The notes under the pieces were generated by a model. It saw only the letters and a program-made list of their open reading frames with translations. It had not been told where the DNA came from and did not search any database. Made by a program: the position numbers and the translations under genes. This document shows positions 16,067 through 64,000 of a DNA stretch of 64,000 nucleotides, one piece after another. The stretch spans positions 28,028-92,027 of the forward strand of contig CADBLE010000008.1 of the NCBI GenBank assembly GCA_902795435.1. The letters run 5' to 3'. Source of the DNA: an uncultured Pseudomonadota bacterium. Lineage in GTDB: Bacteria; Pseudomonadota; Alphaproteobacteria; Rs-D84. Positions within the stretch are counted from its first letter, which is position 1; every line of letters starts with the position of its first letter.

Positions 16067-17281
16067 TTACCCGTTGTTGCCACTGGTTGTTGTTTGTTCT
16101 GGTGCACTGAAACGCCAACCCTTAAATGTTTTACCCTTAATAGTTTGGGCTTTAACTGGGGTACGAACGTCAGAACCGTATGTCGCGGTTCCCGCATTAT
16201 TTGCAGATACATCTTCTGCATCTGCATTTGACCAATTAATTGTAATTGTGTTCGCTTCACAACTTGCCAAAGGATTACCAACAAACCCGAAAAATGCAGC
16301 ACGAAAACGCAAATCCGACGAATAAGTAAACGCCAGATTATCTGCACATATAACCGCACAATCTTCAGCACAACTAGATGCAGAACCAGGGTTTTGTGTA
16401 TAAACCCAAGGGGTAGATACAGATATTAAGCTTTCTCCACTTGGAGTATAGCTATCAAGCTTACAGTAGCAATATTGAGCACCAGTATTACCGGTTTCGT
16501 CAACTAATGTTTCGTATACTGTTGGATTACTCCAATTGTAACCGTCAAAATCACCATCCATAAATCCTTGTGATGTACTGCAACGTCCATGTCCTGCTAT
16601 TCTACCTTTATCACCATAATCCACAGCCCATGTATTTTTTTCTGTCATTCCCCAAACATTTGCTTGTCGTACTTTTTCACCGTTATTTCTTATAGCCGCA
16701 TTATATATAGTACTGCCAACTTTTTTTACTTCAGTATTACCAATTATATTTATCAAATCAGGTGCACCTGGTTTTAGATGCCATCCATTTTCACATGCCG
16801 TTGGTTCGCATGTATCGGTGCCGTTGCCGTAATAATCATTACCGCTGATTGCGGTTGCGTGGGCGATTGCTGTTATGGAATCACCAACATTATTTATATC
16901 GCATGCACGATAACATTGGGTATTACTGCTTGAACCGTCTGCGGAACTGCCAAAACCAGATGGGCATGTTTCTATACCCTGAGCCAAATTTTCATTATAT
17001 TGAACCGTTTCACCACCCGCACAGAAAGAACCCGCCGGACATGTTGTTATTGTTTCGGAATCTTTCGGTAAATATTTTCCCGCATTTAACAAATAATTTA
17101 TTGTTTCATATTCTGCTGTTGCGTTGACGGTACCTTCATAAACACCGTCCATATTTGTTGATGTTGCCGCGTTATCGTATGTTTTGTTTTGTTGCATTAA
17201 ACCATTTGACGGAAAATTTTCCGCCATTGCCGGTGCAACCGACATTATCAACATAGAACTTAAAAATATTTTATTTTTCAT
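16067..17281 (-). CDS. Secreted Cys-rich surface protein paralog A, with C-terminal Listeria-Bacteroides-repeat (Flg_new)-like domain
   Basis: Signal peptide MKNKIFLSSMLIMSVAPAMA. The C-terminus ITINWSNA..TATYGSDVRTPVKAQTIKGKTFKGWRF fits the Flg_new pattern (Y/T-V-x-F ... yG ... P ... GytFxGW). Paralog of 26997-28232. Confidence 0.75.
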   Translation of the reverse strand: MKNKIFLSSMLIMSVAPAMAENFPSNGLMQQNKTYDNAATSTNMDGVYEGTVNATAEYETINYLLNAGKYLPKDSETITTCPAGSFCAGGETVQYNENLAQGIETCPSGFGSSADGSSSNTQCYRACDINNVGDSITAIAHATAISGNDYYGNGTDTCEPTACENGWHLKPGAPDLINIIGNTEVKKVGSTIYNAAIRNNGEKVRQANVWGMTEKNTWAVDYGDKGRIAGHGRCSTSQGFMDGDFDGYNWSNPTVYETLVDETGNTGAQYCYCKLDSYTPSGESLISVSTPWVYTQNPGSASSCAEDCAVICADNLAFTYSSDLRFRAAFFGFVGNPLASCEANTITINWSNADAEDVSANNAGTATYGSDVRTPVKAQTIKGKTFKGWRFSAPEQTTTSGNNG

Positions 17282-17303
17282 TTTTCTTTCCTTTCTTTTG
17301 TTA

Positions 17304-17349
17304 AATAAAAAAACAGACAAATAACGTCATCAACGTTATTTGTCTGTTT
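17304..17349 (-). promoter_or_regulatory. Terminator-like hairpin in the 5' leader of paralog A
   Basis: Perfect 17-bp stem 17311-17327 / 17333-17349. On the minus strand it is followed by a T-run, then RBS AAAGGAAAG and the ATG. Conserved at 28257-28302. Confidence 0.6.
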
Positions 17350-19279: not shown

Positions 19280-22200
19280 TTAGAAATTATATCTCCATTT
19301 GATACGGCCAGTATGAGATATATATTCATCACGAACATCTAAATCATAATCTAATGTCCAATCTGCGTTATAATATCTCATTGTCAAACCAACGCCAAAT
19401 TCAGCACCAAATCTGGACAATTTATCACCAGATATTGAATAAGAATTTACACCTGGCATTGTGACAACTGCAACCTGATCATCAGACATAACATCATATT
19501 TCAACAAACCATGGAATTCAGGTGCAAATGAAATATGTGTATGTTTTGTATTGAAATTGCGTGTGTATTTTCCACCCAAAGTCAATGTCATATAGTCTGT
19601 ATCTTTCAAACTGTGTTTAACACCCAGATTGTTTTTATAATCATCTGCATCTATGTGAGTATAACGCAATCCTAATTCTGGTGTTACACCATTTGCTAAA
19701 TCATACCCAGTTGCAATACGTCCACCAAATGAATGAACATCATAATCAGATTTAACACCAATACCCAATGCAGAACCAGTTTCTGAATATTGAGATATAG
19801 TATAATTCAACACTGCATTTGCATACCATTGGTTTGGTTTATATTGACCATATACAAACATTGTGTATGAATCAATTTCTGTATCACGATGTGCAGAATC
19901 AATGTCAGAATGAGAATAAGAATACCCAGTTCCCACAGTGACAACTTTGTTAAATACACCGTCCATACCGATTGCAAATCCACGTGTATAACCATCAAAA
20001 GAATCTTTTTGATTTGTATAGTTATACAAACCATTTGCCCAGAAACCCGCACCTGTTGGTTTTATATCACCACCGGCACGACCAATTGTTGGCAAAGACA
20101 TACGTGTTGCAGCCAAATTACCAACTGTTGTTTGGACAGATGTTGCAACAGATTGAACAACAGATTCTGTTTCAGGATGAACAGATTTTGTTGCATCTTC
20201 AACCGCAGCAATATCATCCTTTGAATGAGTTGCTAATTTTTCCTGCATCTTGATAGACAAATCTTTCAATTGTTCTGAATCAGATGAAGCGATATTCAGA
20301 ACTGTATTTACAGTTTCTTTTGCTGCACCTGTATCTTCAACAATTTTATCTGCTGATTTCAAAGACGCATCAAAACTTTTGCCGTCTACTGACCATGTCA
20401 AATCAAACACAGAACTGGTTATTTGATTTTTAGCATTTGCAAATACTTTGTCACCAAATATATTATATGTTCCAACCTTTTCAACCGCGACACTCAAATT
20501 TCCATCACCTTCAAAAGATTGTGTTGCAGTCAAGAAAGCGTCCCCATCAGCAAACAAATCTGCAATCAAAGTTCCATTTAATGTAATGTTATTTTGATTT
20601 ATTTTTGCACTGCCTATATTCAATGTAGAGCCATCTGCAATTGTTAAATCACCAGCACCCGCAATTCCACCGTCTATTGTTGTAGTGCCGTTTGCGATTG
20701 TTAAATCACCGACATTATAAATATCGTTTGCAGAATTTTGTGCTTTGTTTCCAGAAAATTCATTTGTTCCAGACAAAACCAAAGTTCCCGCATTATAAAT
20801 CGCCCCACCATTTGCAGATGCTGAGTTATTTGTGAATTTAACATTTGATAATGAAATGTTTCCGCCAATCTGGTCTGTTGTCCCATACGTTTCGTTGTAA
20901 ATCGCACCACCATTTAATGCAGTATTAGAATTAAATGATGTATCTGAAATACTTACAAAACCAGAATCATTTTTATCATTATGCAAAGTATTATAAATCG
21001 CACCACCAAAATTGTCCGCATGGTTTCCGATAAATTTTGTATTTGCTATATCCAATGTTGCATCTTTATTATTACCCAGGTCCACAAAACGCATAGATAT
21101 CGCACCACCATTTGTAGCCGATGTATTAGAATTGAATTCAACATTTGATAAATCGTTCGTTGATACAGACCCCATAAATATTGCGCCACCACCATTTGAT
21201 GCTAAACCGTCAACATGGTTGCCATTGAATTTTGCGTTCTTTAATACTAAATCAGAGAAAGAGCCAATCGCACCACCACCGTCTAAATCGACACCCGCAG
21301 TTGAATTATTGATAAATGTTGTGCCGTCTATGGATAATTTGTGTCCTTTGTTTATCAATGTAGCCAAATAAATTGCACCACCACCATCATTTGATGAATT
21401 CCCTTCAAAAGAGCCCCCATTTATATCAACATTTCCGCGGGCAACCATCGCGCCACCCCAATCAGCACTGTTTTCAACAAAATTTACATTTTTTAATTTC
21501 AAAACTGAATTTACATCATGCTGGGCAATTGCACCAGAATTTCCAGTCGCAGTATTTAAATGAAATGATGCGTTTTCTATTTCCAGTGTACCCGCATTAT
21601 AAATCGCACCACCCTTGGTCGCAGTGTTTTCTTTGAATGCAAAGCCAGATGTTTTATAATTTCGTGTATCTTTTATAACCAATTCGCTTTCATTATAGAT
21701 TGCACCACCCATATTCGCATCATTTTTAGAGAAAGTAGAATTATCAATCCACAATTTTGCATTGCCACCATCAGAATCTGTCCAACCTTCTACAAAAACA
21801 GCACCACCTTTGTCTGCACGATTGGAAACAAATGTTGAATCAGAAACATAGGCATAACCTTCTTTCGCTTTGCTGTTATAGAAAGAATTAAAGAACGCAC
21901 CACCACGAGTACCAGCAACATTGTTAAAAAATTGGGAATATGTAATATCAACCTTGGCACCGGCGGACGAATTTGTTCCTTTTCCTGAATAGTTTGTATC
22001 CAACCAATAATTTATTGGACGTGTTGCAATTGCTCCCCCAACCGTTCCAGATTCATTGCTGTCAAAAGAAACACGATAAACGACAGTCTGGCTTTCTGAA
22101 CCCAACATCAAAGCGCCCGCCCCATCACCCAGATTCGCATAATTTGCAGTTGCTTTATTATGTGCAAATTGTGAATTAGAAACAAGACTGTTTGGTGAAA

Positions 22201-22552
22201 ATATTGCAACGGCCCCAAAATCGCCTGCGGTATTATATACAAAATAACTGCTATCTATTGATACAGAATAATTACCAGTTTGTTTTTTAAAAGCGGTCAA
22301 ACTGTTATCATATAATGCACCTGCGGCACCACCTGTGTTATTTTTTATCTCGCTGTTTTTTATAATTAATTTATTATTAGATAAAATTGCACCACCAGTT
22401 GCAGAATTAGAAATATCTTTTATCTGAACACCATCAAAAGTATAATCTTCTTGTAAAACCTGCCGTTCATTAATTTCTGTATAATCATCCGCCATTGCAG
22501 GCAACACCAATAATGCAGGTAATATGGAAATCAATTTGAAAATTTTATTCAT
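19280..22552 (-). CDS. Pmp-type (polymorphic outer membrane protein repeat) autotransporter
   Basis: Signal peptide. At least 12 FxxN...GGAI(Y) repeat pairs, e.g. FSKNDANMGGAIYN, FTNNSASANGGAIYN. C-terminal beta-barrel ends ...RIKWRYNF. Confidence 0.85.
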   Translation of the reverse strand: MNKIFKLISILPALLVLPAMADDYTEINERQVLQEDYTFDGVQIKDISNSATGGAILSNNKLIIKNSEIKNNTGGAAGALYDNSLTAFKKQTGNYSVSIDSSYFVYNTAGDFGAVAIFSPNSLVSNSQFAHNKATANYANLGDGAGALMLGSESQTVVYRVSFDSNESGTVGGAIATRPINYWLDTNYSGKGTNSSAGAKVDITYSQFFNNVAGTRGGAFFNSFYNSKAKEGYAYVSDSTFVSNRADKGGAVFVEGWTDSDGGNAKLWIDNSTFSKNDANMGGAIYNESELVIKDTRNYKTSGFAFKENTATKGGAIYNAGTLEIENASFHLNTATGNSGAIAQHDVNSVLKLKNVNFVENSADWGGAMVARGNVDINGGSFEGNSSNDGGGAIYLATLINKGHKLSIDGTTFINNSTAGVDLDGGGAIGSFSDLVLKNAKFNGNHVDGLASNGGGAIFMGSVSTNDLSNVEFNSNTSATNGGAISMRFVDLGNNKDATLDIANTKFIGNHADNFGGAIYNTLHNDKNDSGFVSISDTSFNSNTALNGGAIYNETYGTTDQIGGNISLSNVKFTNNSASANGGAIYNAGTLVLSGTNEFSGNKAQNSANDIYNVGDLTIANGTTTIDGGIAGAGDLTIADGSTLNIGSAKINQNNITLNGTLIADLFADGDAFLTATQSFEGDGNLSVAVEKVGTYNIFGDKVFANAKNQITSSVFDLTWSVDGKSFDASLKSADKIVEDTGAAKETVNTVLNIASSDSEQLKDLSIKMQEKLATHSKDDIAAVEDATKSVHPETESVVQSVATSVQTTVGNLAATRMSLPTIGRAGGDIKPTGAGFWANGLYNYTNQKDSFDGYTRGFAIGMDGVFNKVVTVGTGYSYSHSDIDSAHRDTEIDSYTMFVYGQYKPNQWYANAVLNYTISQYSETGSALGIGVKSDYDVHSFGGRIATGYDLANGVTPELGLRYTHIDADDYKNNLGVKHSLKDTDYMTLTLGGKYTRNFNTKHTHISFAPEFHGLLKYDVMSDDQVAVVTMPGVNSYSISGDKLSRFGAEFGVGLTMRYYNADWTLDYDLDVRDEYISHTGRIKWRYNF

Positions 22553-26996: not shown

Positions 26997-28232
26997 TTAC
27001 CCGTTATTGCCGGTTGTTGTTTGTTCTGGTGCACTGAAACGCCAGCCACGGAATGTTTTACCTTTCTTGGTTGCCGCTTTGACTGGGGTTCTGACGTCGC
27101 TGCCATATGTAGCGGTTCCGGCATTGTTTGCGGATATATCCGCTGCACTTGCATCCGACCAATTAATTGTAATTGTATTCGCTTCACATGATGCCAAACC
27201 ACCAGTTCCGGTTGCAGAACCGACCAACGCAGCACGGAACGCGAGGTTGGTCGGGTCCGAGTTATTCATGCCGCTCACACAGGCTCTAGCGCAGCTGTCC
27301 GCACAATTCGACGCGCTGTTGTAGCTGTTGTAGCTGTTGTAGAACACCCAAGGGGAGAGCACCGCTTGCAAGGTTCCACCATTCGGTGTATAGCCCGTCA
27401 CATTACAATAACAATTTGATGCGCCCTCTTGTCCCGTTTCGTCTGTTAAACTGCTTACAAAATGGTCAGATTCAAATGTATTATTATTGTAAGACCATTT
27501 ATTTGCTACACCACGTGTGCTACAACGGGCCTGACCAATCAACATACCCTTGGATGAACCGTAATCTACCACCCATGTGTTATTATCGCTTATGCCATAA
27601 TAACTTTGTTCTTGATGTACAACAACTTTACTGTCTTCACTGAAAGAACCGTTGTTGTTTATAGATGCACCCGCACCGGTGCCTGTACCAATTGCGGTTG
27701 CTAATTCACTGCTACTTATTCCTGATTTCAGATGCCATCCGTTTTCACAATCTGTTGCGCCACATTGGTTATTATCACCATAATAATAGCCACCCGTTAC
27801 GCCCGCAGAATGTTCTACATCCGCCGTTGTACATGTTCTGTAACAATCGTTTTGTGAATCAGAACCCGCTGCGGATAATGCGTATATACCGTCTGTCGCG
27901 GTGGAACATGAATTTATACCCTGGTCTGCGTTTTCATTATACAATGCATTTGTTAACCCAGGGCACCAAGAACCCGCTGGACATTGTGTTCCGTTTGTTG
28001 CGTCAGAACCAGCCGCCAAATAATTACCAGCGACGATATTATACAAGATATCTGTATATTCTGCGACCGCGTTTACGGTTCCCGAATATACACCGTCCAT
28101 ATTTGTTGATGTTGCCGCATTATCGTATGTTTTGTTTTCCTGCATATATCCGTTTGATGGAAACGTTTCCGCCATTGCAGGTAACACAAACCCCATTGCA
28201 AATGCACTGGTTAAAAATATATTCTTTTTCAT
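26997..28232 (-). CDS. Secreted Cys-rich surface protein paralog B, with C-terminal Flg_new-like domain
   Basis: Signal peptide MKKNIFLTSAFAMGFVLPAMA. The N-terminal block ETFPSNGYMQENKTYDNAATSTNMDGVY and the C-terminal block ASCEANTITINWS...GKTFRGWRFSAPEQTTT are shared with 16067-17281; the core is diverged. Confidence 0.75.
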   Translation of the reverse strand: MKKNIFLTSAFAMGFVLPAMAETFPSNGYMQENKTYDNAATSTNMDGVYSGTVNAVAEYTDILYNIVAGNYLAAGSDATNGTQCPAGSWCPGLTNALYNENADQGINSCSTATDGIYALSAAGSDSQNDCYRTCTTADVEHSAGVTGGYYYGDNNQCGATDCENGWHLKSGISSSELATAIGTGTGAGASINNNGSFSEDSKVVVHQEQSYYGISDNNTWVVDYGSSKGMLIGQARCSTRGVANKWSYNNNTFESDHFVSSLTDETGQEGASNCYCNVTGYTPNGGTLQAVLSPWVFYNSYNSYNSASNCADSCARACVSGMNNSDPTNLAFRAALVGSATGTGGLASCEANTITINWSDASAADISANNAGTATYGSDVRTPVKAATKKGKTFRGWRFSAPEQTTTGNNG

Positions 28233-28256
28233 GTTTTTCCTTCCTTTGTTTGTTAA

Positions 28257-28302
28257 ATAAAAAAAACAGACAAATAACGTCATAAACGTTATTTGTCTGT
28301 TT
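28257..28302 (-). promoter_or_regulatory. Terminator-like hairpin in the 5' leader of paralog B
   Basis: 17-bp stem 28264-28280 / 28286-28302, identical in sequence to the cassette A stem; only the loop differs. Confidence 0.6.
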
Positions 28303-28310
28303 TCATATTC

Positions 28311-28329
28311 GCGTGAATACAATTCACGC
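28311..28329. promoter_or_regulatory. Palindrome GCGTGAAT-ACA-ATTCACGC upstream of paralog B
   Basis: Perfect 8-bp arms; a covarying counterpart of 17358-17376. Confidence 0.5.
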
Positions 28330-28354
28330 AATTTATACACGCAACGAAACTATC

Positions 28355-30073: not shown

Positions 30074-33000
30074 TTAACCTTCGCCGTTGTCTTTATTTAC
30101 CTTTACTGTGAAATTAGCAATATGCTGTTTCAATTCAGTTTTGTATAAATTGTTTGCTTTGGCCTGTTCTACCAATCTGTCAAAGTTTGGATTTACAGAA
30201 CGTGCCGCTGCAAATCTGGTTTCAGATTTCATGAATTCTTCCAATGGGAATGGTGTATCAACATGTGAATCCATTGTCAATGGGTTTTGTTCCCGTGACA
30301 AATTTTCAGGATTAAATCTGTAAAGTGGCCATGCCCCTGTATTCACCAAATTGATTTGATGTTCAACACCGTTCTGTAATGCGAATCCATGTGCAATACA
30401 TGGTGCATACGCCAAAATAATAGATGGGCCATCAAATGCTTCTGCTTCACGGAATGCACGAATCGCTTGTGCTTGGTTTGCACCAATCGCAATTTGCGCA
30501 ACATAGGCACCCGACATCATTGCCATTAAACCTAAATCTTTCTTGGCATGTTCTTTACCGCCAATTGCAAATTTCATAGACGCACCAAATGGTGTTGATT
30601 TAGATTGCTGACCACCGGTGTTGGAATAACCTTCGGTATCCAAAACCAATATATTTACATTTTCACCACTGTGTAAAATATGGTCAACGCCACCGTAACC
30701 AATATCGTATGCCCAACCATCACCACCAACAATCCAAACAGATTTATCAACAATCGCATCTAACAAAGTCAATGCGTATTTAGCGCGTTCATTATCCATT
30801 TGTGATAATTGTTGTTGCAGTGTTTCTTTGATTTGTCTTTGTTGTTCGGTGTCTTTGATATTGAACATATCTTCTACGTTTTCAATACCCAATTCAAACA
30901 ATACACTTTTCAATGCAGATTTTTTCTGGTTCAAAGCGATTCGCATACCTAAACCATATTCTGCATTATCTTCGAACAAAGAATTAGACCATGCCGGACC
31001 GCGCCCGTTTTTATCCGCACACCATGGTGTTGTTGGTAAATTTCCACCGTATATAGATGAACATCCCGTTGCATTTGCAACAACCATTTTATCCCCGAAC
31101 AAATGCGACATTAAACGAACATAAGGTGTTTCGCCACAACCAGCGCACGCCCCAGGAAATTCAAAATAATGAGGCAACAATTCAACATGCTTTGGTATAT
31201 TCAGATTCAATTTTGATTTATCAATGTCTTTGATTTTCAGAGATTCATCAAATGTCTTTTGATTTTTTATACCATCACTCATTGGAATCATTGTCAATGC
31301 ACCAACTGGACAATTTTTCATACACAAACCACACCCCGTACAATCAGATGGTGAAATATTTAATGTGTAATACAAACCATCACCCAATTCAGGTGTTTTC
31401 ATTGGAACAACAGTTATACCGTTTGCCTTTTCACGTTCCATTTCTGATTCATTCATAACCTTGATACGAATCGCACCATGTGGGCACAACATTGAACATT
31501 TTCCACATTGGATACATTTGCTCAAATCACAATTCGCAACGCGTGTTGCCAATGCCCTTTTTTCATAACGCGATGTTCCAACAGGATATTGACCACCACC
31601 AAATGTACCGTCTATCTTGAATCTGGACACAGGAATTTCATCACCCCTGCCCGCTGCCATTTCACCCAATGTGCCGGCAATTTCAGATGGTGCATCCATT
31701 GTCATTGCAGGAACAAAATCAGGTGCAAATTCAGAAACACTGGATGGAAAATCATATTTACGCAAATATGATTCCGCCATATCAACCGCTTTCCAGTTAG
31801 CCTGGACAACTTCGATTCCTTTCTTTTTATATGTTTTTTCAATTGCAACCTTTGCCGCGTCTTTCGCTGTATCTGGGTTTATCACTTTTGTTAAATTAAA
31901 GAAATTCAACATTATAAATGTGTTTATTCTGTTACCCAATCCCAATTCTTGTGCCGCAGCATTCGCGTCTAAGAAATACAAATTCGCACGCATACGAATC
32001 AAATGTTCTTGGGCTGATTTTGGTAAATTCATAAATGCTTCATCTGGTGTCATAGCAGTATTTATCATAACCGTTCCGCCCGCACGCAAAGACGCAAACA
32101 CATCAAATCTTTGTGCAATCATAAAATTAGATACACAGATGAAATCTGCACTTTCTACTAAATATTCACTTTTGATTGGATTTTCAGAAAAACGAATATG
32201 AGATTGTGTTATACCACCAGATTTTTTGGAATCATATACCGCATAAGATTGTGGATATAAATCAGAATTTTCACCAACAATTTTTACAATGTTTTTCACG
32301 GCACCAACTGTTCCGTCACTGCCGATACCATAAAGAATAGCGGTTTTAACATCTTTGTTTTCAATGGTGAAACTTTTATCTGTATCCAATGATAAATGTG
32401 TTAAATCATCTTCAATTCCAACTGTGAAATTATGATGTAATTTATTTTGCATCATGTATTCAACGATTGCTTTGACATCACGTGGTTTAAATTCTTTTGA
32501 CCCCAAACCATATCTGCCACCGAATACAGAAATCTTGGAATCAACGATTGAACGAACATTTTGATACAATGGTTCACCCACAGAACCCGCTTCTTTTGTT
32601 CTGTCTAAAACTGCGATTTGTTCAACTGTTTCTGGCAGTACATCTAAAAACGCTTTCACAGGGAACGGATTAAATAAATGAACACGAATTAAACCAACAC
32701 CCTTTGGTAAAAATTCAATTGTTTCTTCTATTGTTTCGCAACTTGACCCCATTGAAACAATTACATATTTTGCAGATTTATCACCAACATAATCAACCAG
32801 ACCATATTTACGACCGGTCAATTCTGCAAATTTATCCATACATTTTTGGACAATATCTGGCAATTCATCATACAGTGGATTTGCCGCTTCGCGTCCTTGG
32901 AAATAAACATCTGGATTTTGAGCCGTTCCACGAATCTTTGGATTATCAGGATTCATACCACGTGATTTATTCAACGCAACTAAATCAGCCGGCATCATTT

Positions 33001-33571
33001 CACGCAAAACATCATCTTCTATTCTGACCAAAGCAGATTCTTCGTGACTGGTTCTGAAACCATCAAAGAAATGTAAAAATGGAACACGACTTTGTAATGT
33101 CGCAGCATGTGCAATCGCCGCCATATCGTGTGCAGATTGAACATTATGTGAAGACAACATTGCAAACCCAGTTTGACGAACCGCCATAACATCACTGTGG
33201 TCACCAAAAATAGACAACGCATGTGTAGCCAGCGCACGTGCCGCAACATGCATAACGAAAGGTGTCTGTTCACCAGCAATTTTATACATGTTTGGAATCA
33301 TCAACAACAAACCCTGAGATGCTGTAAATGTTGTTGCCAAAGCCCCCATCTGTAACGCACCATGCAACGCACCCGCCGCACCTGCTTCAGATTGCATTTC
33401 TATAATTTCAGGAATCACACCCCAAATATTTTTCTTGTGTTGGAAAGACCATTCGTCTGCCAATTCACCCATAGTAGAACTTGGTGTAATCGGATAAATC
33501 GCCGCACAATCAACACATCTGTACGCAACATCAGCCGCAGCCCAGTTTCCATCAACAATCATTTTTGCCAT
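30074..33571 (-). CDS. nifJ: Pyruvate:ferredoxin (flavodoxin) oxidoreductase, single-chain NifJ/PFOR type
   Basis: Two ferredoxin-type clusters (CIQCGKCSMLCPHGAI and CTGCGLCMKNCPVGAL); TPP-binding GGDGWAYDIGYGG; start trimmed to MAKMIVDGNWAAA (ATG at 33569-33571). Confidence 0.93.
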   Translation of the reverse strand: MAKMIVDGNWAAADVAYRCVDCAAIYPITPSSTMGELADEWSFQHKKNIWGVIPEIIEMQSEAGAAGALHGALQMGALATTFTASQGLLLMIPNMYKIAGEQTPFVMHVAARALATHALSIFGDHSDVMAVRQTGFAMLSSHNVQSAHDMAAIAHAATLQSRVPFLHFFDGFRTSHEESALVRIEDDVLREMMPADLVALNKSRGMNPDNPKIRGTAQNPDVYFQGREAANPLYDELPDIVQKCMDKFAELTGRKYGLVDYVGDKSAKYVIVSMGSSCETIEETIEFLPKGVGLIRVHLFNPFPVKAFLDVLPETVEQIAVLDRTKEAGSVGEPLYQNVRSIVDSKISVFGGRYGLGSKEFKPRDVKAIVEYMMQNKLHHNFTVGIEDDLTHLSLDTDKSFTIENKDVKTAILYGIGSDGTVGAVKNIVKIVGENSDLYPQSYAVYDSKKSGGITQSHIRFSENPIKSEYLVESADFICVSNFMIAQRFDVFASLRAGGTVMINTAMTPDEAFMNLPKSAQEHLIRMRANLYFLDANAAAQELGLGNRINTFIMLNFFNLTKVINPDTAKDAAKVAIEKTYKKKGIEVVQANWKAVDMAESYLRKYDFPSSVSEFAPDFVPAMTMDAPSEIAGTLGEMAAGRGDEIPVSRFKIDGTFGGGQYPVGTSRYEKRALATRVANCDLSKCIQCGKCSMLCPHGAIRIKVMNESEMEREKANGITVVPMKTPELGDGLYYTLNISPSDCTGCGLCMKNCPVGALTMIPMSDGIKNQKTFDESLKIKDIDKSKLNLNIPKHVELLPHYFEFPGACAGCGETPYVRLMSHLFGDKMVVANATGCSSIYGGNLPTTPWCADKNGRGPAWSNSLFEDNAEYGLGMRIALNQKKSALKSVLFELGIENVEDMFNIKDTEQQRQIKETLQQQLSQMDNERAKYALTLLDAIVDKSVWIVGGDGWAYDIGYGGVDHILHSGENVNILVLDTEGYSNTGGQQSKSTPFGASMKFAIGGKEHAKKDLGLMAMMSGAYVAQIAIGANQAQAIRAFREAEAFDGPSIILAYAPCIAHGFALQNGVEHQINLVNTGAWPLYRFNPENLSREQNPLTMDSHVDTPFPLEEFMKSETRFAAARSVNPNFDRLVEQAKANNLYKTELKQHIANFTVKVNKDNGEG

Positions 33572-33732
33572 TTCTTTTACCCCAATTTTTTCAATATTAA
33601 AATTATGAGAAAAATATACATCTTTTATAAATTTAAGGCAATACAAAAAAACAAAACTATAAATAAAAATATTTGCATTAAATTATAACCTTATTTATAA
33701 TTGGGTTGACAATATGAATTATATTGTTGGGG

Positions 33733-43969: not shown

Positions 43970-46336
43970 ATGAGGAAAATCTCTTTGATTTTATCAGCAC
44001 TGTTTTTGTGCATTGGTTTTAATACCAATGCTGCTGTTCGCACACCTCAATCCCCTGCCCGTCAATCAGAAACTAATGCACGTCAAACAGCAACCGCAAA
44101 AAAATCAGTTGTAAAAAATACAGAAACAAAATCTTCAAGAACAGCAACTTCTAAATCTGTAAAAAAAACTGTTTCTAATGTAAATCGTTCCGCAACAAAC
44201 AAAAAAACTGTTATGTCTAGAAATACGGCAAACGCATCTGTCCACAAAATTTCAACTGCACGTTCTGCGACAAAACAACAAAAAAGCAAAAACGCACGTG
44301 CAGCTGCCACAACAAAAACAGTTGCTTTCAGCGAACCATACATTGCATGTCGCGATGCTTATTTTTCATGCATGGACCAATTTTGCGCAACACAAAACGA
44401 AACATACAGAAGATGTGTATGTTCTTCTAAACTGACAAAAATTCAAGACACTGAAAAGAAAATAGACCAGACAGTAGATAGTTTGAAAGATTTCCAAGAC
44501 ATAAACATAGACGCAATTTCTAAAACATCTGCAGAAGTAAAAGCAATGGGTAATGCATCTGAAGGCGAAAGCGCTATGAAAAAAGATAAATCCAGCAGTG
44601 CAACTGCATTGAAAAATATTTCTGGGGTTCTGAATGACACAAAACAAAAATCATTACAAGAACCTGTTTCAACAAACAACAAAGCAATTTGGGGAACGAC
44701 AGATTTAATTGGCGGTTCTGATATTGCTGATTTAACTGGCGAACCATTGTATAATGCGGTTCATGCACAATGTGCAGAAATTGTTCAAGCAAGTTGTTCT
44801 GATTCTGATTTAAAAATGGTTTCGTCCGCATACGGTGTTTATATTGAAAACGATTGTGCATTATTAGAATCAGCATTAAACAATAAAAAGAATGCTACAA
44901 ATTCTTCAATCCGTTCTACAAGGCATCAAATGCAAGAAGCCCGTCTTGAAAATTATAATGCACACAATTCTTTATCATTAAACGATTGCATTGCAAAAGT
45001 CCGCGAAGATTTGACACAAGAAACCGCTTGCGGTAAAGATTATATTCACTGTCTGGATGTAACAGGTAAATATTTGAATATAACAACCGGCGAACCAATT
45101 TATTCCAAAGAATTTTATCAACTTGAAAATCAAATCTCGTTATCTGGTGATGTATTAAAAAATTCTACAAACAGTCTTGTTTTATCTGTATTGAACGATA
45201 AAAAAGCATTCGCACAAAAATCTCTTGATTTGTGCACAGACAATTCTACAGATGTATGGGAAGAATTTTTAAGACAGGCCATTGTTGAAATTTCCCAGGG
45301 ACAATTAAAGAGAATACAAAATGTTAAATCAGAATGTTTAAAGGTTGTAAATGATTGTTATCTTAAACAAACAGAACAAATAAAAGGTTTCTCTGATAAT
45401 TCATCTGAAATTTCGTTGGGAACAACCCTTGAATTATCCGAAGAAATGTGCAAAGAAAAATTGACCACATGCAGTAATTTATATGGTCATGGTTCAGATG
45501 GTCTTGAAATTTTAGTAAATACAATGAAAGGAATCACAGATTCAACCATTGCGCAAACATGCCCTGATTTATTAGATACCTTTATTACAAAAACATGTGC
45601 CGTATCATCAAATGATTCTAAACATTCTTTCCCATACGGATGTCGTGCATATGCACCGGGTGAACAACGTTATGCTGTGAATTCAATATGTAATTTATCA
45701 ACTATCAATCCTTTTGAACGTTCATCAACATCAACAATTGATGCATCATCATCAACAACAACCACAATAAATACTATGTACAATGTAGCAACACTTGTAA
45801 AATCGTTATCGTTAGTATTGAAATACACATATTGTAATTTCAATTATTATTTATTCTATTCTGATGGTGAAACAGAATGTAACGCTACCAACGAATGGTG
45901 TTATAATCAAACTAAAGCGACACAATGTAAAACATGTCCTACGGGATACCTGTGTATGGGGGGGCAAAACCCACCAACCCAAGGCGACCAAACAATAATA
46001 TATAAAAATTGTGGTGAAACATATATCGGTTCTCTTTATCATAAATTGGTCAGATACGCTTTACAAAACTGCGTTCGTCCATCCAGCAATTCTGGTGAAT
46101 TACCTGAAACACTGTTGGGGGATGTTGATAATGCGATGAAGAAAGTTAAACAAAAACTTGTTGCAGAATTATCAACAGAATGTTCTGACATGGGTGGTGT
46201 TTGGGTTGAAATTCCATGGAAAGATACCAATTCAGACGGAAAACATGACGACAACAAAGCGACATTATACGTAAAATTCTATACAACAACTGGTGCAAGT
46301 AATTTATGGGGATTCTGTGCAACACCGACAGAATAA
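43970..46336 (+). CDS. Large secreted cysteine-dense protein, family member P3 (788 aa)
   Basis: Signal peptide MRKISLILSALFLCIGFNTNA; basic Ser/Thr/Lys-rich N-region; motif ACRDAYFSCMDQFCATQNETYRRCVC; late CKTCPTGYLCMGG module. Confidence 0.8.
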   Translation: MRKISLILSALFLCIGFNTNAAVRTPQSPARQSETNARQTATAKKSVVKNTETKSSRTATSKSVKKTVSNVNRSATNKKTVMSRNTANASVHKISTARSATKQQKSKNARAAATTKTVAFSEPYIACRDAYFSCMDQFCATQNETYRRCVCSSKLTKIQDTEKKIDQTVDSLKDFQDINIDAISKTSAEVKAMGNASEGESAMKKDKSSSATALKNISGVLNDTKQKSLQEPVSTNNKAIWGTTDLIGGSDIADLTGEPLYNAVHAQCAEIVQASCSDSDLKMVSSAYGVYIENDCALLESALNNKKNATNSSIRSTRHQMQEARLENYNAHNSLSLNDCIAKVREDLTQETACGKDYIHCLDVTGKYLNITTGEPIYSKEFYQLENQISLSGDVLKNSTNSLVLSVLNDKKAFAQKSLDLCTDNSTDVWEEFLRQAIVEISQGQLKRIQNVKSECLKVVNDCYLKQTEQIKGFSDNSSEISLGTTLELSEEMCKEKLTTCSNLYGHGSDGLEILVNTMKGITDSTIAQTCPDLLDTFITKTCAVSSNDSKHSFPYGCRAYAPGEQRYAVNSICNLSTINPFERSSTSTIDASSSTTTTINTMYNVATLVKSLSLVLKYTYCNFNYYLFYSDGETECNATNEWCYNQTKATQCKTCPTGYLCMGGQNPPTQGDQTIIYKNCGETYIGSLYHKLVRYALQNCVRPSSNSGELPETLLGDVDNAMKKVKQKLVAELSTECSDMGGVWVEIPWKDTNSDGKHDDNKATLYVKFYTTTGASNLWGFCATPTE

Positions 46337-61141: not shown

Positions 61142-62170
61142 TTATTTATAAGGATCTTCGTATTTTTTTGCCAATTCAGAAATATTTTCTGGTGGCCAAC
61201 CTGGAACTTCCATACCCAATGACAATCCCATTGCTTCCAATTGAGCCTTGATTTCGTTCAAAGATTTACGGCCGAAATTAGGTGTTTTCAACATATCATT
61301 TTCGGTCTTTTGAACCAATTCGCCCAACCAGTTGATTTTGTCGTTCTTTAAGCAATTTGTTGCACGAACAGACAATTCAAGTTCATCAACACGTTTCAAT
61401 AACTTTGGATCAAATGGCAAAGTGTCTTTTGATTTTTCGTCATCATCTTCAACAGAAGACATTGCAGGATCTTCAAAATTGATAAATCCTGTCAATTGGT
61501 CTGTCAAGATACGTGCTGCGAAAGCGATTGCATCTTCTGGAGATACAGAACCGTTAGTTTTAACAGTCAATTCCAATTTATCATAATCTGTGTTTTGTCC
61601 AACACGAGTTGGTGAAACATTGGACGCAACATTCAAAATTGGTGAATAAATTGAATCTACTGGGATAGTTCCCAATGGTAAATCAACAGCATTGATATTT
61701 GCAGGTACATAACCACGGCCAGAATTCAAAGTTATTTCCATATCAAAAGAAGCGCCTGCGTCCAAAGTGCAGATTTCAGCGTCTTTGTTCATAACTTCAA
61801 CATTGCCAGATGTTTCAATCATACCAGCAGTTACAACAGCAGGACCTTTGACTTTCAATTCTGCCTTGTGTTGACCTTCGGTCAGGGCTTTGAAATAAAC
61901 GCCCTTCAAATTTAACAGGATATCTGTGATATCTTCACGAACACCAGACAAAGATGTGAATTCGTGTTGAGCACCTTCAATTTTTACATAGACAGGTGCA
62001 CATCCCTGTAAAGAAGACAACAACACACGACGCAAAGCGGTTCCCAATGTTAAACCGAAACCTTTTTCCAAAGGTTCAGCGATCAATGTTGCAATATTAG
62101 GATTATGTTCATCAACTTTGATATTCATTTTTTTTGGTTTTATCAAAGTCATCCAGTTTTTTTCAATCAT
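61142..62170 (-). CDS. rpoA: DNA-directed RNA polymerase subunit alpha
   Basis: N-terminal domain ...[18 protein letters not shown]-terminal domain [14 protein letters not shown]...[10 protein letters not shown]. Confidence 0.96.
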
Positions 62171-62310
62171 TTTAAAAACTCCATAAGGCTTAGTTTATTA
62201 TTTTCGCCACACGGCACACACCTGATTTTTCAAGTATGCCCGGAAATTTTAATCTAAAAAACCAATAAAGTCAAATAAAATCACAATATTATTTTATAAT
62301 TTACAAACAC

Positions 62311-64000
62311 CTAATTTCCCGCAGGTTCTTTGTTTGTTATATGATACATTTTTTCAAAACTCATTGGTATTTCCGCTATTTCAAAGCACCAATTCTGATT
62401 TTGTTTGTCTTTTATGCAAAACTTTTTTGCATCAATATATGTATTGCAAACACTTGATTGACAAGTTGTTTCATCACTAGAATTACATACGGTTCCCTTG
62501 CCACTTGTCGTTTTACCGTTTTGGCACGCAACACAATTACCAACTGCGCCACTACACGCCATACCTTTCCAAGAATAAGTTCCCTGGACACATTCATATT
62601 TATCACCATTCATACAACAAGAACCCGCCGGACATTCTGTCCAAACATTGCTTTCTTGATAGTATGTATTTGCATCATCCACTACTTTAGCCAATTCAGC
62701 ATATGTTAAACACCATTTCAATTTCATGTTACTTGAATCTGTATATAAAGCGGTATTCCCACCACATGTTTCGCATTTAAAAGTGTTTGTGCTTGTATCC
62801 CACAAGAATCCCTTGTTATCTGAACATGGTTTGCAAGTGTGAGGTGCCTGGTCGGTTCCTATGTTAACACCATTAGGGCAACCTTGACAAACCGTTCCGT
62901 GTCCACCTTCTGTAACAATATCTACAATTTGCCCAGCAGTTGGATTAGCAGCAGCTTGACCACACACACAACTATTGCCTACGACACGTTCTATATCTTT
63001 GCATTGATGACAAACACGAATATTATGGTTACCATCATTGAACGTACTAAATTTTACCACTCTAAAATCTTCATATTCTGCTGAGTTTGTTGCTTGTAAC
63101 TCATAAGTGTCTGGATATCCATTTACTATAGAACATTCTGCATATTCAAAACCGCTATAATAACTATCTTCATGATTTTCTCTATATGTTACTTCTGATA
63201 CAATCTCATATGTTTTGTTTGAATTGTGTAAAAAACCCTTATTTGAATTATTAACACCTTTTTTTAAAGATACACATGAATTATTAAAGGTTCCATTAGT
63301 TTGCCCATTTACTGTTCCGAACGGACATTTTATCTTTGTTTTTCTATTACATGCAAAATTTTTCGGACAAGGTTGACAAGTTTGTTCCGAAAACCATTGG
63401 TCTGTATCACACTGTTCACATTTACCTTCTTCTGTATTAAAATATTGATATTCACCACAACAAACGTTTACATTTGTATCTCCAGCAGATACAGTATACG
63501 AATTATCACATGTTTCTACACACTCTTTGCTATCAAAATCATAATACCCACTGCAATAAGCACAACTGCCATCTTGTATTACTTGATAATCACCACATTC
63601 TAATTCACAAGAATAGACCCTTGGTTTTTTTATATCTTGTTTTGACGTCATTCCATAAATAGAACATTTAACACATTGACTATAGGATGTTCCTTCTATT
63701 ATTTGGGAAAATTTCCCATATCCTTTTTCATTATTAAATCCAGTCTCAGTACAATAGTTAACACACCTAGAATTATCATATTTTGCAACTTGGACAGACC
63801 CACACGTTTTATACTTATAATAATATTTCTCATTTCCATCTGAAACTTCGTCCGGCACTTTTCCAAAATCATTTTCACTGGTATATGTTATACATTTATA
63901 TCCCTCAGTATCTTCAACTGACGTTTCACCTGGGTGTTCGTCACCACCGCATTTCCGACATTCACCGTTTTCGGTGTCTCGCCCATATCCTTTCTTACAA
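62311..64000 (-). CDS. CxxC-repeat, extremely Cys-rich protein P6 (N-terminus beyond window edge)
   Basis: The ORF track starts it at a GTG (63858), but the frame stays open to position 63999 (manual translation: CKKGYGRDTENGECRKCGGDEHPGE...). Many C-x2-C modules: CQPCPKNFAC, CHQCKD, CQGCPNG, CKPCSD, CETCGG, CVACQNG, CPAGSCCMNG. Confidence 0.7.
   Translation of the reverse strand, partial: CKKGYGRDTENGECRKCGGDEHPGETSVEDTEGYKCITYTSENDFGKVPDEVSDGNEKYYYKYKTCGSVQVAKYDNSRCVNYCTETGFNNEKGYGKFSQIIEGTSYSQCVKCSIYGMTSKQDIKKPRVYSCELECGDYQVIQDGSCAYCSGYYDFDSKECVETCDNSYTVSAGDTNVNVCCGEYQYFNTEEGKCEQCDTDQWFSEQTCQPCPKNFACNRKTKIKCPFGTVNGQTNGTFNNSCVSLKKGVNNSNKGFLHNSNKTYEIVSEVTYRENHEDSYYSGFEYAECSIVNGYPDTYELQATNSAEYEDFRVVKFSTFNDGNHNIRVCHQCKDIERVVGNSCVCGQAAANPTAGQIVDIVTEGGHGTVCQGCPNGVNIGTDQAPHTCKPCSDNKGFLWDTSTNTFKCETCGGNTALYTDSSNMKLKWCLTYAELAKVVDDANTYYQESNVWTECPAGSCCMNGDKYECVQGTYSWKGMACSGAVGNCVACQNGKTTSGKGTVCNSSDETTCQSSVCNTYIDAKKFCIKDKQNQNWCFEIAEIPMSFEKMYHITNKEPAGN

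Follow-up and report, generated by a model that had tools for sequence, protein, structure and literature searches.

A cysteine-rich protein with a signal peptide is encoded in a hypervariable rpsK-rpoA slot of an uncultured Candidatus Enterousia bacterium

The 64,000-nucleotide stretch analysed here (the window) comes from contig CADBLE010000008.1 of an uncultured alphaproteobacterium of the order Rs-D84 (GenBank assembly GCA_902795435.1; G000:C8:28028-92027 in our coordinates), whose genome assembly comprises 955 kb in 15 contigs with 35% GC and is 90% complete. The window ends within a minus-strand gene for a cysteine-rich protein, which we call P6. The gene sits between rpsK (ribosomal protein S11), upstream, and rpoA, downstream, in a slot that is bounded exactly by these two genes and is hypervariable. 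Members of Candidatus Enterousia are uncultured gut bacteria of ~0.9 Mb that are thought to depend on a partner cell, and the order Rs-D84 is described as fermentative, with reduced genomes and probably a partner-dependent way of life (PMC12306168). Close relatives of this genome were sampled from ruminant, horse, chicken and human guts.

The P6 reading frame ends at window position 62311 and is open up to base 64000, the edge of the window, which holds the stop codon and codons 432-993 (62311..64000, minus strand, 1690 bases). The initial annotation had proposed that the gene is longer than its open reading frame (ORF) entry, and this is the case: read on the genome contig, the full gene has 993 codons (993-residue protein P0001) and a ribosome-binding site, and contains neither the stop codon nor the frameshift that would have marked it as a pseudogene. 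It starts beyond the window with a TTG at the equivalent of position 65292 (G000:C8:93319), with AAGGAAAGG upstream. The gene caller chose a later ATG, giving the 977-residue P0002. We favour the upstream TTG because the homologue P0009 starts with an ATG and encodes the same signal peptide as P6, MILQKSARFLMIFLCAIMFHGNVFG.

The setting of the gene is that of the ribosomal alpha operon. rpsK ends in a 12-bp hairpin followed by a U7 run, a strong terminator (-17.4 kcal/mol, z -3.9), after which a match to the promoter consensus, TTGACC-17-TACACT, lies upstream of P6. The 140-base spacer between the P6 stop codon and rpoA (61142..62170, minus strand) contains a further promoter-like site, TTGACT-17-TAAAAT (62246..62274, minus strand), recognised by consensus match only, and rpoA is followed by rplQ (L17; 60477..61028, minus strand). 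With a terminator behind rpsK, a promoter-like site before P6 and another before rpoA, P6 looks like a self-contained unit set into the row rpsM-rpsK-rpoA-rplQ.

rpsK and rpoA are separated by about 40 bp in the order's other families and by 175 to >3600 bp within the genus. In this gap, the closest relatives (rpoA 87-97% identical) carry one secreted cysteine-rich ORF of 210-978 residues with 6-11% Cys, and the content of the slot differs in nearly every species of the Candidatus Enterousia subclade of P6: the slot proteins form a similarity network of shuffled modules. In alignments with most close relatives, the nucleotide match breaks off at the rpsK stop codon and picks up again 33-100 nt past the P6 stop. 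Against L047 (rpoA 97% identical), 92% similarity continues through the first ~36 nt of P6, is lost over the whole mature region and returns 16 nt past the P6 stop; at the protein level, P6 and its L047 counterpart share 29% identity over residues 300-985. We rejected a mobile-element origin of the slot, which lies between two housekeeping genes and has its edges at the rpsK stop codon and the rpoA leader.

This site has the features of a core-gene-flanked hypervariable locus: its flanks are conserved, its boundaries are sharp, its content differs between close relatives and its alleles are mosaic. The same features mark the pneumococcal capsule locus (dexB-aliA) and the E. coli O-antigen locus (galF-gnd), which are hypervariable, lie between core genes and are exchanged through homologous recombination. 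Those loci are biosynthetic clusters, whereas the P6 slot holds a single protein gene and its flanks are ribosomal-operon genes that are normally adjacent.

More distant Enterousia carry other contents at the site: a cysteine-poor family of 208-229 residues unrelated to P6 (L039 7116-7802, L043 3274-3897, L044 2797-3435; E 1e-19 to 1e-26 between members), a secreted protein of 138-142 residues, or alpha/beta-hydrolase-like ORFs. In 27 of the 80 loci (L071-L122), about one third of the sampled Enterousia genomes, rpsK does not lie within 5 kb upstream of rpoA and the alpha operon is split. The slot ORFs of L049, L053, L055, L059, L062, L063 and L115 share a tail in their last ~40 codons, consisting of a hydrophobic x-P strand, then [GK][RK][IL]N[RT]SV[IV] and basic residues. 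The corresponding motif [ILV][ND]xS[VA][IVL] occurs neither in P6 nor in any other ORF of its genome, and so the tail is not a general sorting signal there.

Within the gene, variation is organised in segments. Compared with strain L127, the sequence is 96.6% identical from rpsK to codon ~582 and 95.9% identical from codon 757 on; codons 583-638 and 661-756 are unalignable, and the island between them, codons 639-660, is 92.6% identical at the nucleotide level. The comparison with L128 gives the same breakpoints. The internal hypervariable segment (residues 583-756; 63025..63546, minus strand) thus has no nucleotide alignment even to a strain with 96%-identical flanks, and encloses the invariant island CQPCPKNFACNRKTKIKCPFGT (residues 639-660; 63313..63378, minus strand). 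Identities between alleles are incongruent from segment to segment: over residues 583-638, P0001 is 77% identical to P0006 and 37% identical to P0003, and P0003 and P0005, which are 92% identical there, are 36-45% identical over residues 262-520. These incongruent identities and shared breakpoints show that P6 alleles recombine.

Neither a retroelement template nor silent cassettes explain this variation, because a blastn search of the whole genome (90% complete) with the P6 gene matched only the gene itself, with no template repeat or second copy of any part of it. Diversity-generating retroelements likewise produce localised hypervariability on a fixed scaffold; the changes in P6, however, are replacements of whole segments rather than adenine-directed point changes.

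Substitution patterns also set P6 apart from its neighbours. Between the P6 genome and L128 (Nei-Gojobori method), the ratio of nonsynonymous to synonymous substitution rates (dN/dS) is 0.90 over residues 26-993 (dN 0.277, dS 0.309) and 2.0 over residues 26-250 (dN 0.286, dS 0.143; Fisher p 0.005), compared with 0 for both rpoA (dN 0, dS 0.033) and rpsK (dN 0, dS 0.15). The island at residues 639-660 is constrained (dN 0.059, dS 0.28, dN/dS 0.21; range 0.2-0.34). In the same comparison Cys is kept at 83 of 85 aligned positions, against 60% identity elsewhere.

The protein itself begins with MQIKKSLRFLLISLCIMSVHNVVLS/DDDW, where charged, hydrophobic and small residues are arranged as in a Sec signal peptide; of the two features for which the initial annotation had suggested inspecting the N-terminus, the signal peptide is present and no anchor was identified. 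P6 contains 87 Cys (8.8%), and 86 of them, an even number, follow the signal peptide. The CxxC motif occurs 21 times, compared with 7.5 +/- 2.5 expected (5000 shuffles; shuffle maximum 20), and its copies are often paired 10-20 residues apart. The modules CQPCPKNFAC, CQGCPNG, CKPCSD, CETCGG and CVACQNGKT were all quoted correctly in the initial annotation; the last one it listed, "CTECPAGSCCMNG", reads WTECPAGSCCMNG in P6, with W rather than C before TEC. A C-terminal cysteine domain, CPAGSCC..C..GTYS..C..C..GKTT..C...FCI..CF (residues 887-970; 62383..62634, minus strand), contains the CPxGxxC motif flagged earlier and also occurs in same-site proteins of other species.

Relatives of P6 are few. 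A word-indexed search of 5.8 billion proteins returned just five non-self homologues (47-79% identity), and a profile search of 1.84 billion representative proteins returned 19 relatives; no match was found in a further 100 genomes of the family, of which 58 belong to the same genus. The three homologue contigs examined all have the order S11-X-rpoA, and intact full-length alleles are present in several independent metagenome samples. A sequence search of the PDB gave nothing significant.

The initial annotation had likened the cysteine modules to GCC2/GCC3, furin-like and Giardia variant surface protein (VSP) repeats. Neither Furin-like (PF00757), VSP (PF03302) nor TNFR_c6 (PF00020) matched P6 at E <= 10, whether searched whole or in thirds, and the furin-like and VSP-like comparisons are not upheld. 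The first comparison holds for the family and not for P6 itself. Against Ephrin_rec_like (PF07699, the current name of GCC2_GCC3; curated gathering cut-off 23.1 bits), P6 scores 10.4 bits (E 0.61, residues 154-185) and a six-frame search 14.2 and 11.4 bits, none of which reaches the cut-off. A profile of the P6 family (approximately residues 382-450), on the other hand, matches P0012 (4e-47), P0014 (1e-25), P0019, P0020 and P0021, with a range of 4e-47 to 1e-4; the matched proteins include Tribonema minus KAG5190945.1 (4e-47), a Tribonema gayanum protein (1e-25) and several metagenome proteins, and are assigned by Pfam to Ephrin_rec_like and TNFR_ELAPOR1. P6 residues 382-449 align to residues 49-119 of P0020, including CTACGANEQPNSDHTACVC with CTPCGTNEQPNSRRTACTC, and the aligned counterparts of the CPAGSCC module (residues 876-938) are a PF07699-positive part of P0019 and three repeats in tandem in P0018. 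Moreover, 7 of the 11 same-site proteins of sister species that we tested exceed the PF07699 cut-off (26.9-57 bits).

The best Ephrin_rec_like-type unit of P6, the one that aligns to these Pfam-positive proteins, spans residues 382-450, of which residues 432-450 lie in the window (63943..64000, minus strand). Few units fit the pattern C-x2-C-P-x-G-x-[YF] well (CDTCPANTY, CKPCPDGYRC, CQPCPKNFAC and ECPAGSCC), and their spacing is irregular. We therefore regard the modules, on partial and indirect sequence support, as a probable degenerate form of the Ephrin_rec_like or tumour necrosis factor (TNF) receptor-like cysteine repeat. Repeats of this type are expanded throughout the order: 97 of 121 Rs-D84 genomes have PF07699 matches above the cut-off, frequently with numerous matches each, and 14 control genomes have none. 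In the genome of P6, just two giant proteins on contig C5 exceed it.

AlphaFold2 models built from shallow alignments, with a predicted local distance difference test score (pLDDT) of 49 for whole P6 and 69 for residues 262-660, both show chains or ladders of short beta-hairpins. The top Foldseek neighbour is the Chlamydomonas mastigoneme protein 8wa2 (E 3e-6 with the poor whole-P6 model, 3.6e-3 with the better model), and further neighbours are meckelin, TNF receptors, EphA2, Pfs25-type EGF domains and the furin repeats of R-spondin. The predicted fold class is consistent with the sequence link to Ephrin_rec_like and TNFR modules. It differs from the cysteine knot that had been proposed at first: the models are ladders of disulfide-type beta-hairpins resembling TNF-receptor and ephrin-receptor repeats.

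P6 contains two copies of CPxGxxC, and three other proteins of the window contain one each: P3 (CKTCPTGYLCMGG, 45926..45964, plus strand, with the motif itself at 45935-45955), surface paralogue A (CPAGSFC, 17021..17041, minus strand) and surface paralogue B (CPAGSWC, 27963..27983, minus strand). The recurrence noted in the initial annotation is real and exceeds what composition would give, since the shuffle probabilities are low (5e-5 for P6, 9.5e-4 for P3, 1.6e-3 for A and 1.1e-3 for B). Paralogue A belongs to a family of ~410 residues with about 14 copies genome-wide, in which the motif appears as SETVITCPAGSFCPGISGNVQ...CPTGYASSAAGASSDTQC, and it is also found in the giant C5 proteins. Members of the ~410-residue family (window 16067-17320 and 26997-28340 among the roughly 14 copies) share a near-identical N-terminal module, AEYDIIDYIVNAGQYLPADSETVITCPAGSFCPG...CPTGYASSAAGASSDTQC; against PF07699 they score 10-11.5 bits, full-length but sub-threshold, exactly at the CPAGS module.

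The stronger proposal, that a single unit links P6, P3, A and B, rests on a motif of 7-14 residues and does not hold. Neither phmmer against all ORFs of its own genome nor a scan of genome contigs with the P6-family alignment found a paralogue or relative of P6, and homology between its CPAGSCC module and that of the ~410-residue paralogues is unproven beyond the motif (hhalign, 14 columns, 5% probability). Most plausibly, CPxGxxC is the characteristic half-unit of a single module class in wide use in this lineage; it is no evidence for a specific unit shared by the four proteins.

Two other genes of the window are worth recording. A 1090-residue protein (19280-22552, minus strand) has seven Chlamydia-type PMP (polymorphic membrane protein) repeats and a C-terminal autotransporter beta-domain (Pfam 2e-18 and 9e-30). 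A full-length pyruvate:ferredoxin oxidoreductase of 1190 residues (30074-33646, minus strand) fits a strictly fermentative anaerobe. Elsewhere in the genome there are a secretin gene and a 290-residue ORF with a DsbA-family domain (G000:C12:15635-16114); no DsbB or VKOR partner that would reoxidise DsbA in this anaerobe was found in the 90% complete genome.

Known extracellular repeat proteins provide the closest comparisons. P6 shares with PF07699 proteins (KAG5190945.1, ELAPOR1-type TNFR-like repeats, mastigoneme 8wa2) the C-x2-C-P-x-G-x-Y type of unit (fitted well by a few units of P6), beta-hairpin modules (predicted for P6) and an extracellular location (presumed for P6). It differs from them in its sub-threshold scores, in its irregular units, which form no regular tandem array, and in being bacterial. 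Giardia VSPs are likewise CxxC-rich, exported and highly variable on a conserved Cys scaffold. P6, in contrast to them, has no C-terminal membrane helix or CRGKA tail (its C-terminus, ...IAEIPMSFEKMYHITNKEPAGN, contains no hydrophobic stretch), and varies between strains at a single locus, whereas VSPs switch among many genomic copies. The module class is thus a known one; in the literature searched we found no description of a bacterial PF07699-type member, of bacterial use of such modules or of the rpsK-rpoA slot.

We infer, with a probability of roughly 0.7, that the P6 gene is functional and that P6 is a Sec-exported, disulfide-scaffolded, diversifying contact protein, because a fixed Cys scaffold, diversifying loops, segment exchange and species-specific content typify proteins that face cells, hosts or phages. 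P6 would be exported by Sec through its signal peptide, its cysteines would probably be oxidised by the DsbA-family protein, and the secretin is a possible outward route. The mature protein would be elongated, with small beta-hairpin modules stacked on one another and most likely clamped by disulfides, and would lie at the cell surface or outside the cell, where it may act in contact with or recognition of a partner cell, a host or phages. Within the lineage the Cys scaffold would stay fixed while the intervening residues diversify and homologous recombination exchanges entire segments among alleles.

More speculatively, the slot could be a dedicated site of population-level variation, with the ultra-conserved ribosomal-operon flanks and the invariant 22-residue island as recombination anchors for the exchange of eukaryote-derived, receptor-like cysteine-module cassettes, whose products would set partner specificity by mimicking or binding surface molecules of a eukaryotic partner, be it a gut protist or the host's epithelium. 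We consider this extended scenario doubtful.

The contact-protein reading has to be weighed against several others, all of which we judge less likely. P6 might be a structural protein of the periplasm or envelope, part of a disulfide cross-linked stiffening layer such as that of chlamydial OmcB and OmcA, which likewise are cysteine-dense, exported and made by bacteria with small genomes. In favour of this, P6 has a signal peptide yet no recognisable surface route or anchor, the genome encodes several other cysteine-dense exported families, and the gene adjoins highly expressed ones. Structural envelope proteins are normally conserved, however, as the Omc proteins are (no sequence similarity between these and P6 was detected), whereas P6 was not found in 100 other genomes of its family, occupies a site whose content changes in nearly every species, and shows mosaic alleles and dN/dS of 0.9-2.0; we think an envelope role unlikely. 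The same dN/dS values, close to 1 along most of the gene, could instead indicate a functionless leftover cargo gene drifting under relaxed selection in a recombination-prone gap, and one frameshifted homologue and the short or different slot contents of more distant species point the same way. Drift is very hard to reconcile with 993 open codons in an AT-rich genome, with the conservation of 83 of 85 Cys against 60% of other residues, with dN/dS of 0.2-0.34 in the island and with intact full-length alleles in several independent samples.

The cysteines could also serve another chemistry, or the protein another target. A zinc-ribbon-like array in which CxxC pairs bind zinc or another metal, with no disulfides, would suit the 21 often paired CxxC motifs and a strict fermenter of the anoxic gut in which DsbB and VKOR were not found. 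We hold it to be highly improbable given the export signal, the even number of cysteines (86) in the mature protein, the encoded DsbA-family protein and the kinship with Ephrin_rec_like and TNFR-type modules, which are established disulfide domains. As a secreted, strain-variable protein of a partner-dependent bacterium, P6 might be a toxin or competition effector of the polymorphic kind. In P6, however, the variable parts are internal and N-terminal and the C-terminal domain is conserved, the reverse of polymorphic toxins; moreover, no toxin or enzymatic domain was detected in P6 and the next gene is rpoA, with no adjoining immunity-like gene, which leaves this reading scarcely credible.

Several observations weigh against the contact-protein reading itself. 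P6, whole or in thirds, is below the Pfam threshold for every cysteine-repeat family. Its models are of low to moderate confidence, the better one lacks a Foldseek match at E 0.001, and TM-scores do not exceed 0.31. No anchor, sorting signal or outer-membrane export route was identified, and P6 could therefore stay periplasmic; neither DsbB nor VKOR turned up in the genome, which is 90% complete. Along most of the gene dN/dS is near 1, which also fits relaxed constraint at non-Cys positions, and values above 1 come from just one region in one pairwise comparison. Finally, the homologue L002 is split by a 1-base frameshift in the variable segment (contig ERZ28653813, 5380-5560) into ORFs of 556 and 236 residues, with no long homopolymer at the site; a genuine pseudogene or a mistake in assembly could each account for the split.

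For Enterousia, whose members probably depend on partners, P6 is a concrete candidate for the interface of contact or evasion, because it carries an export signal and a conserved Cys scaffold, is otherwise diversifying and lies inside the ribosomal alpha operon. With mosaic alleles whose breakpoints are fixed, it is also a tractable example of how a protein can diversify around a preserved scaffold without a retroelement or silent cassettes. In the wider order Rs-D84, a cysteine repeat that has been regarded as eukaryotic is a staple, present in 97 of the 121 genomes.

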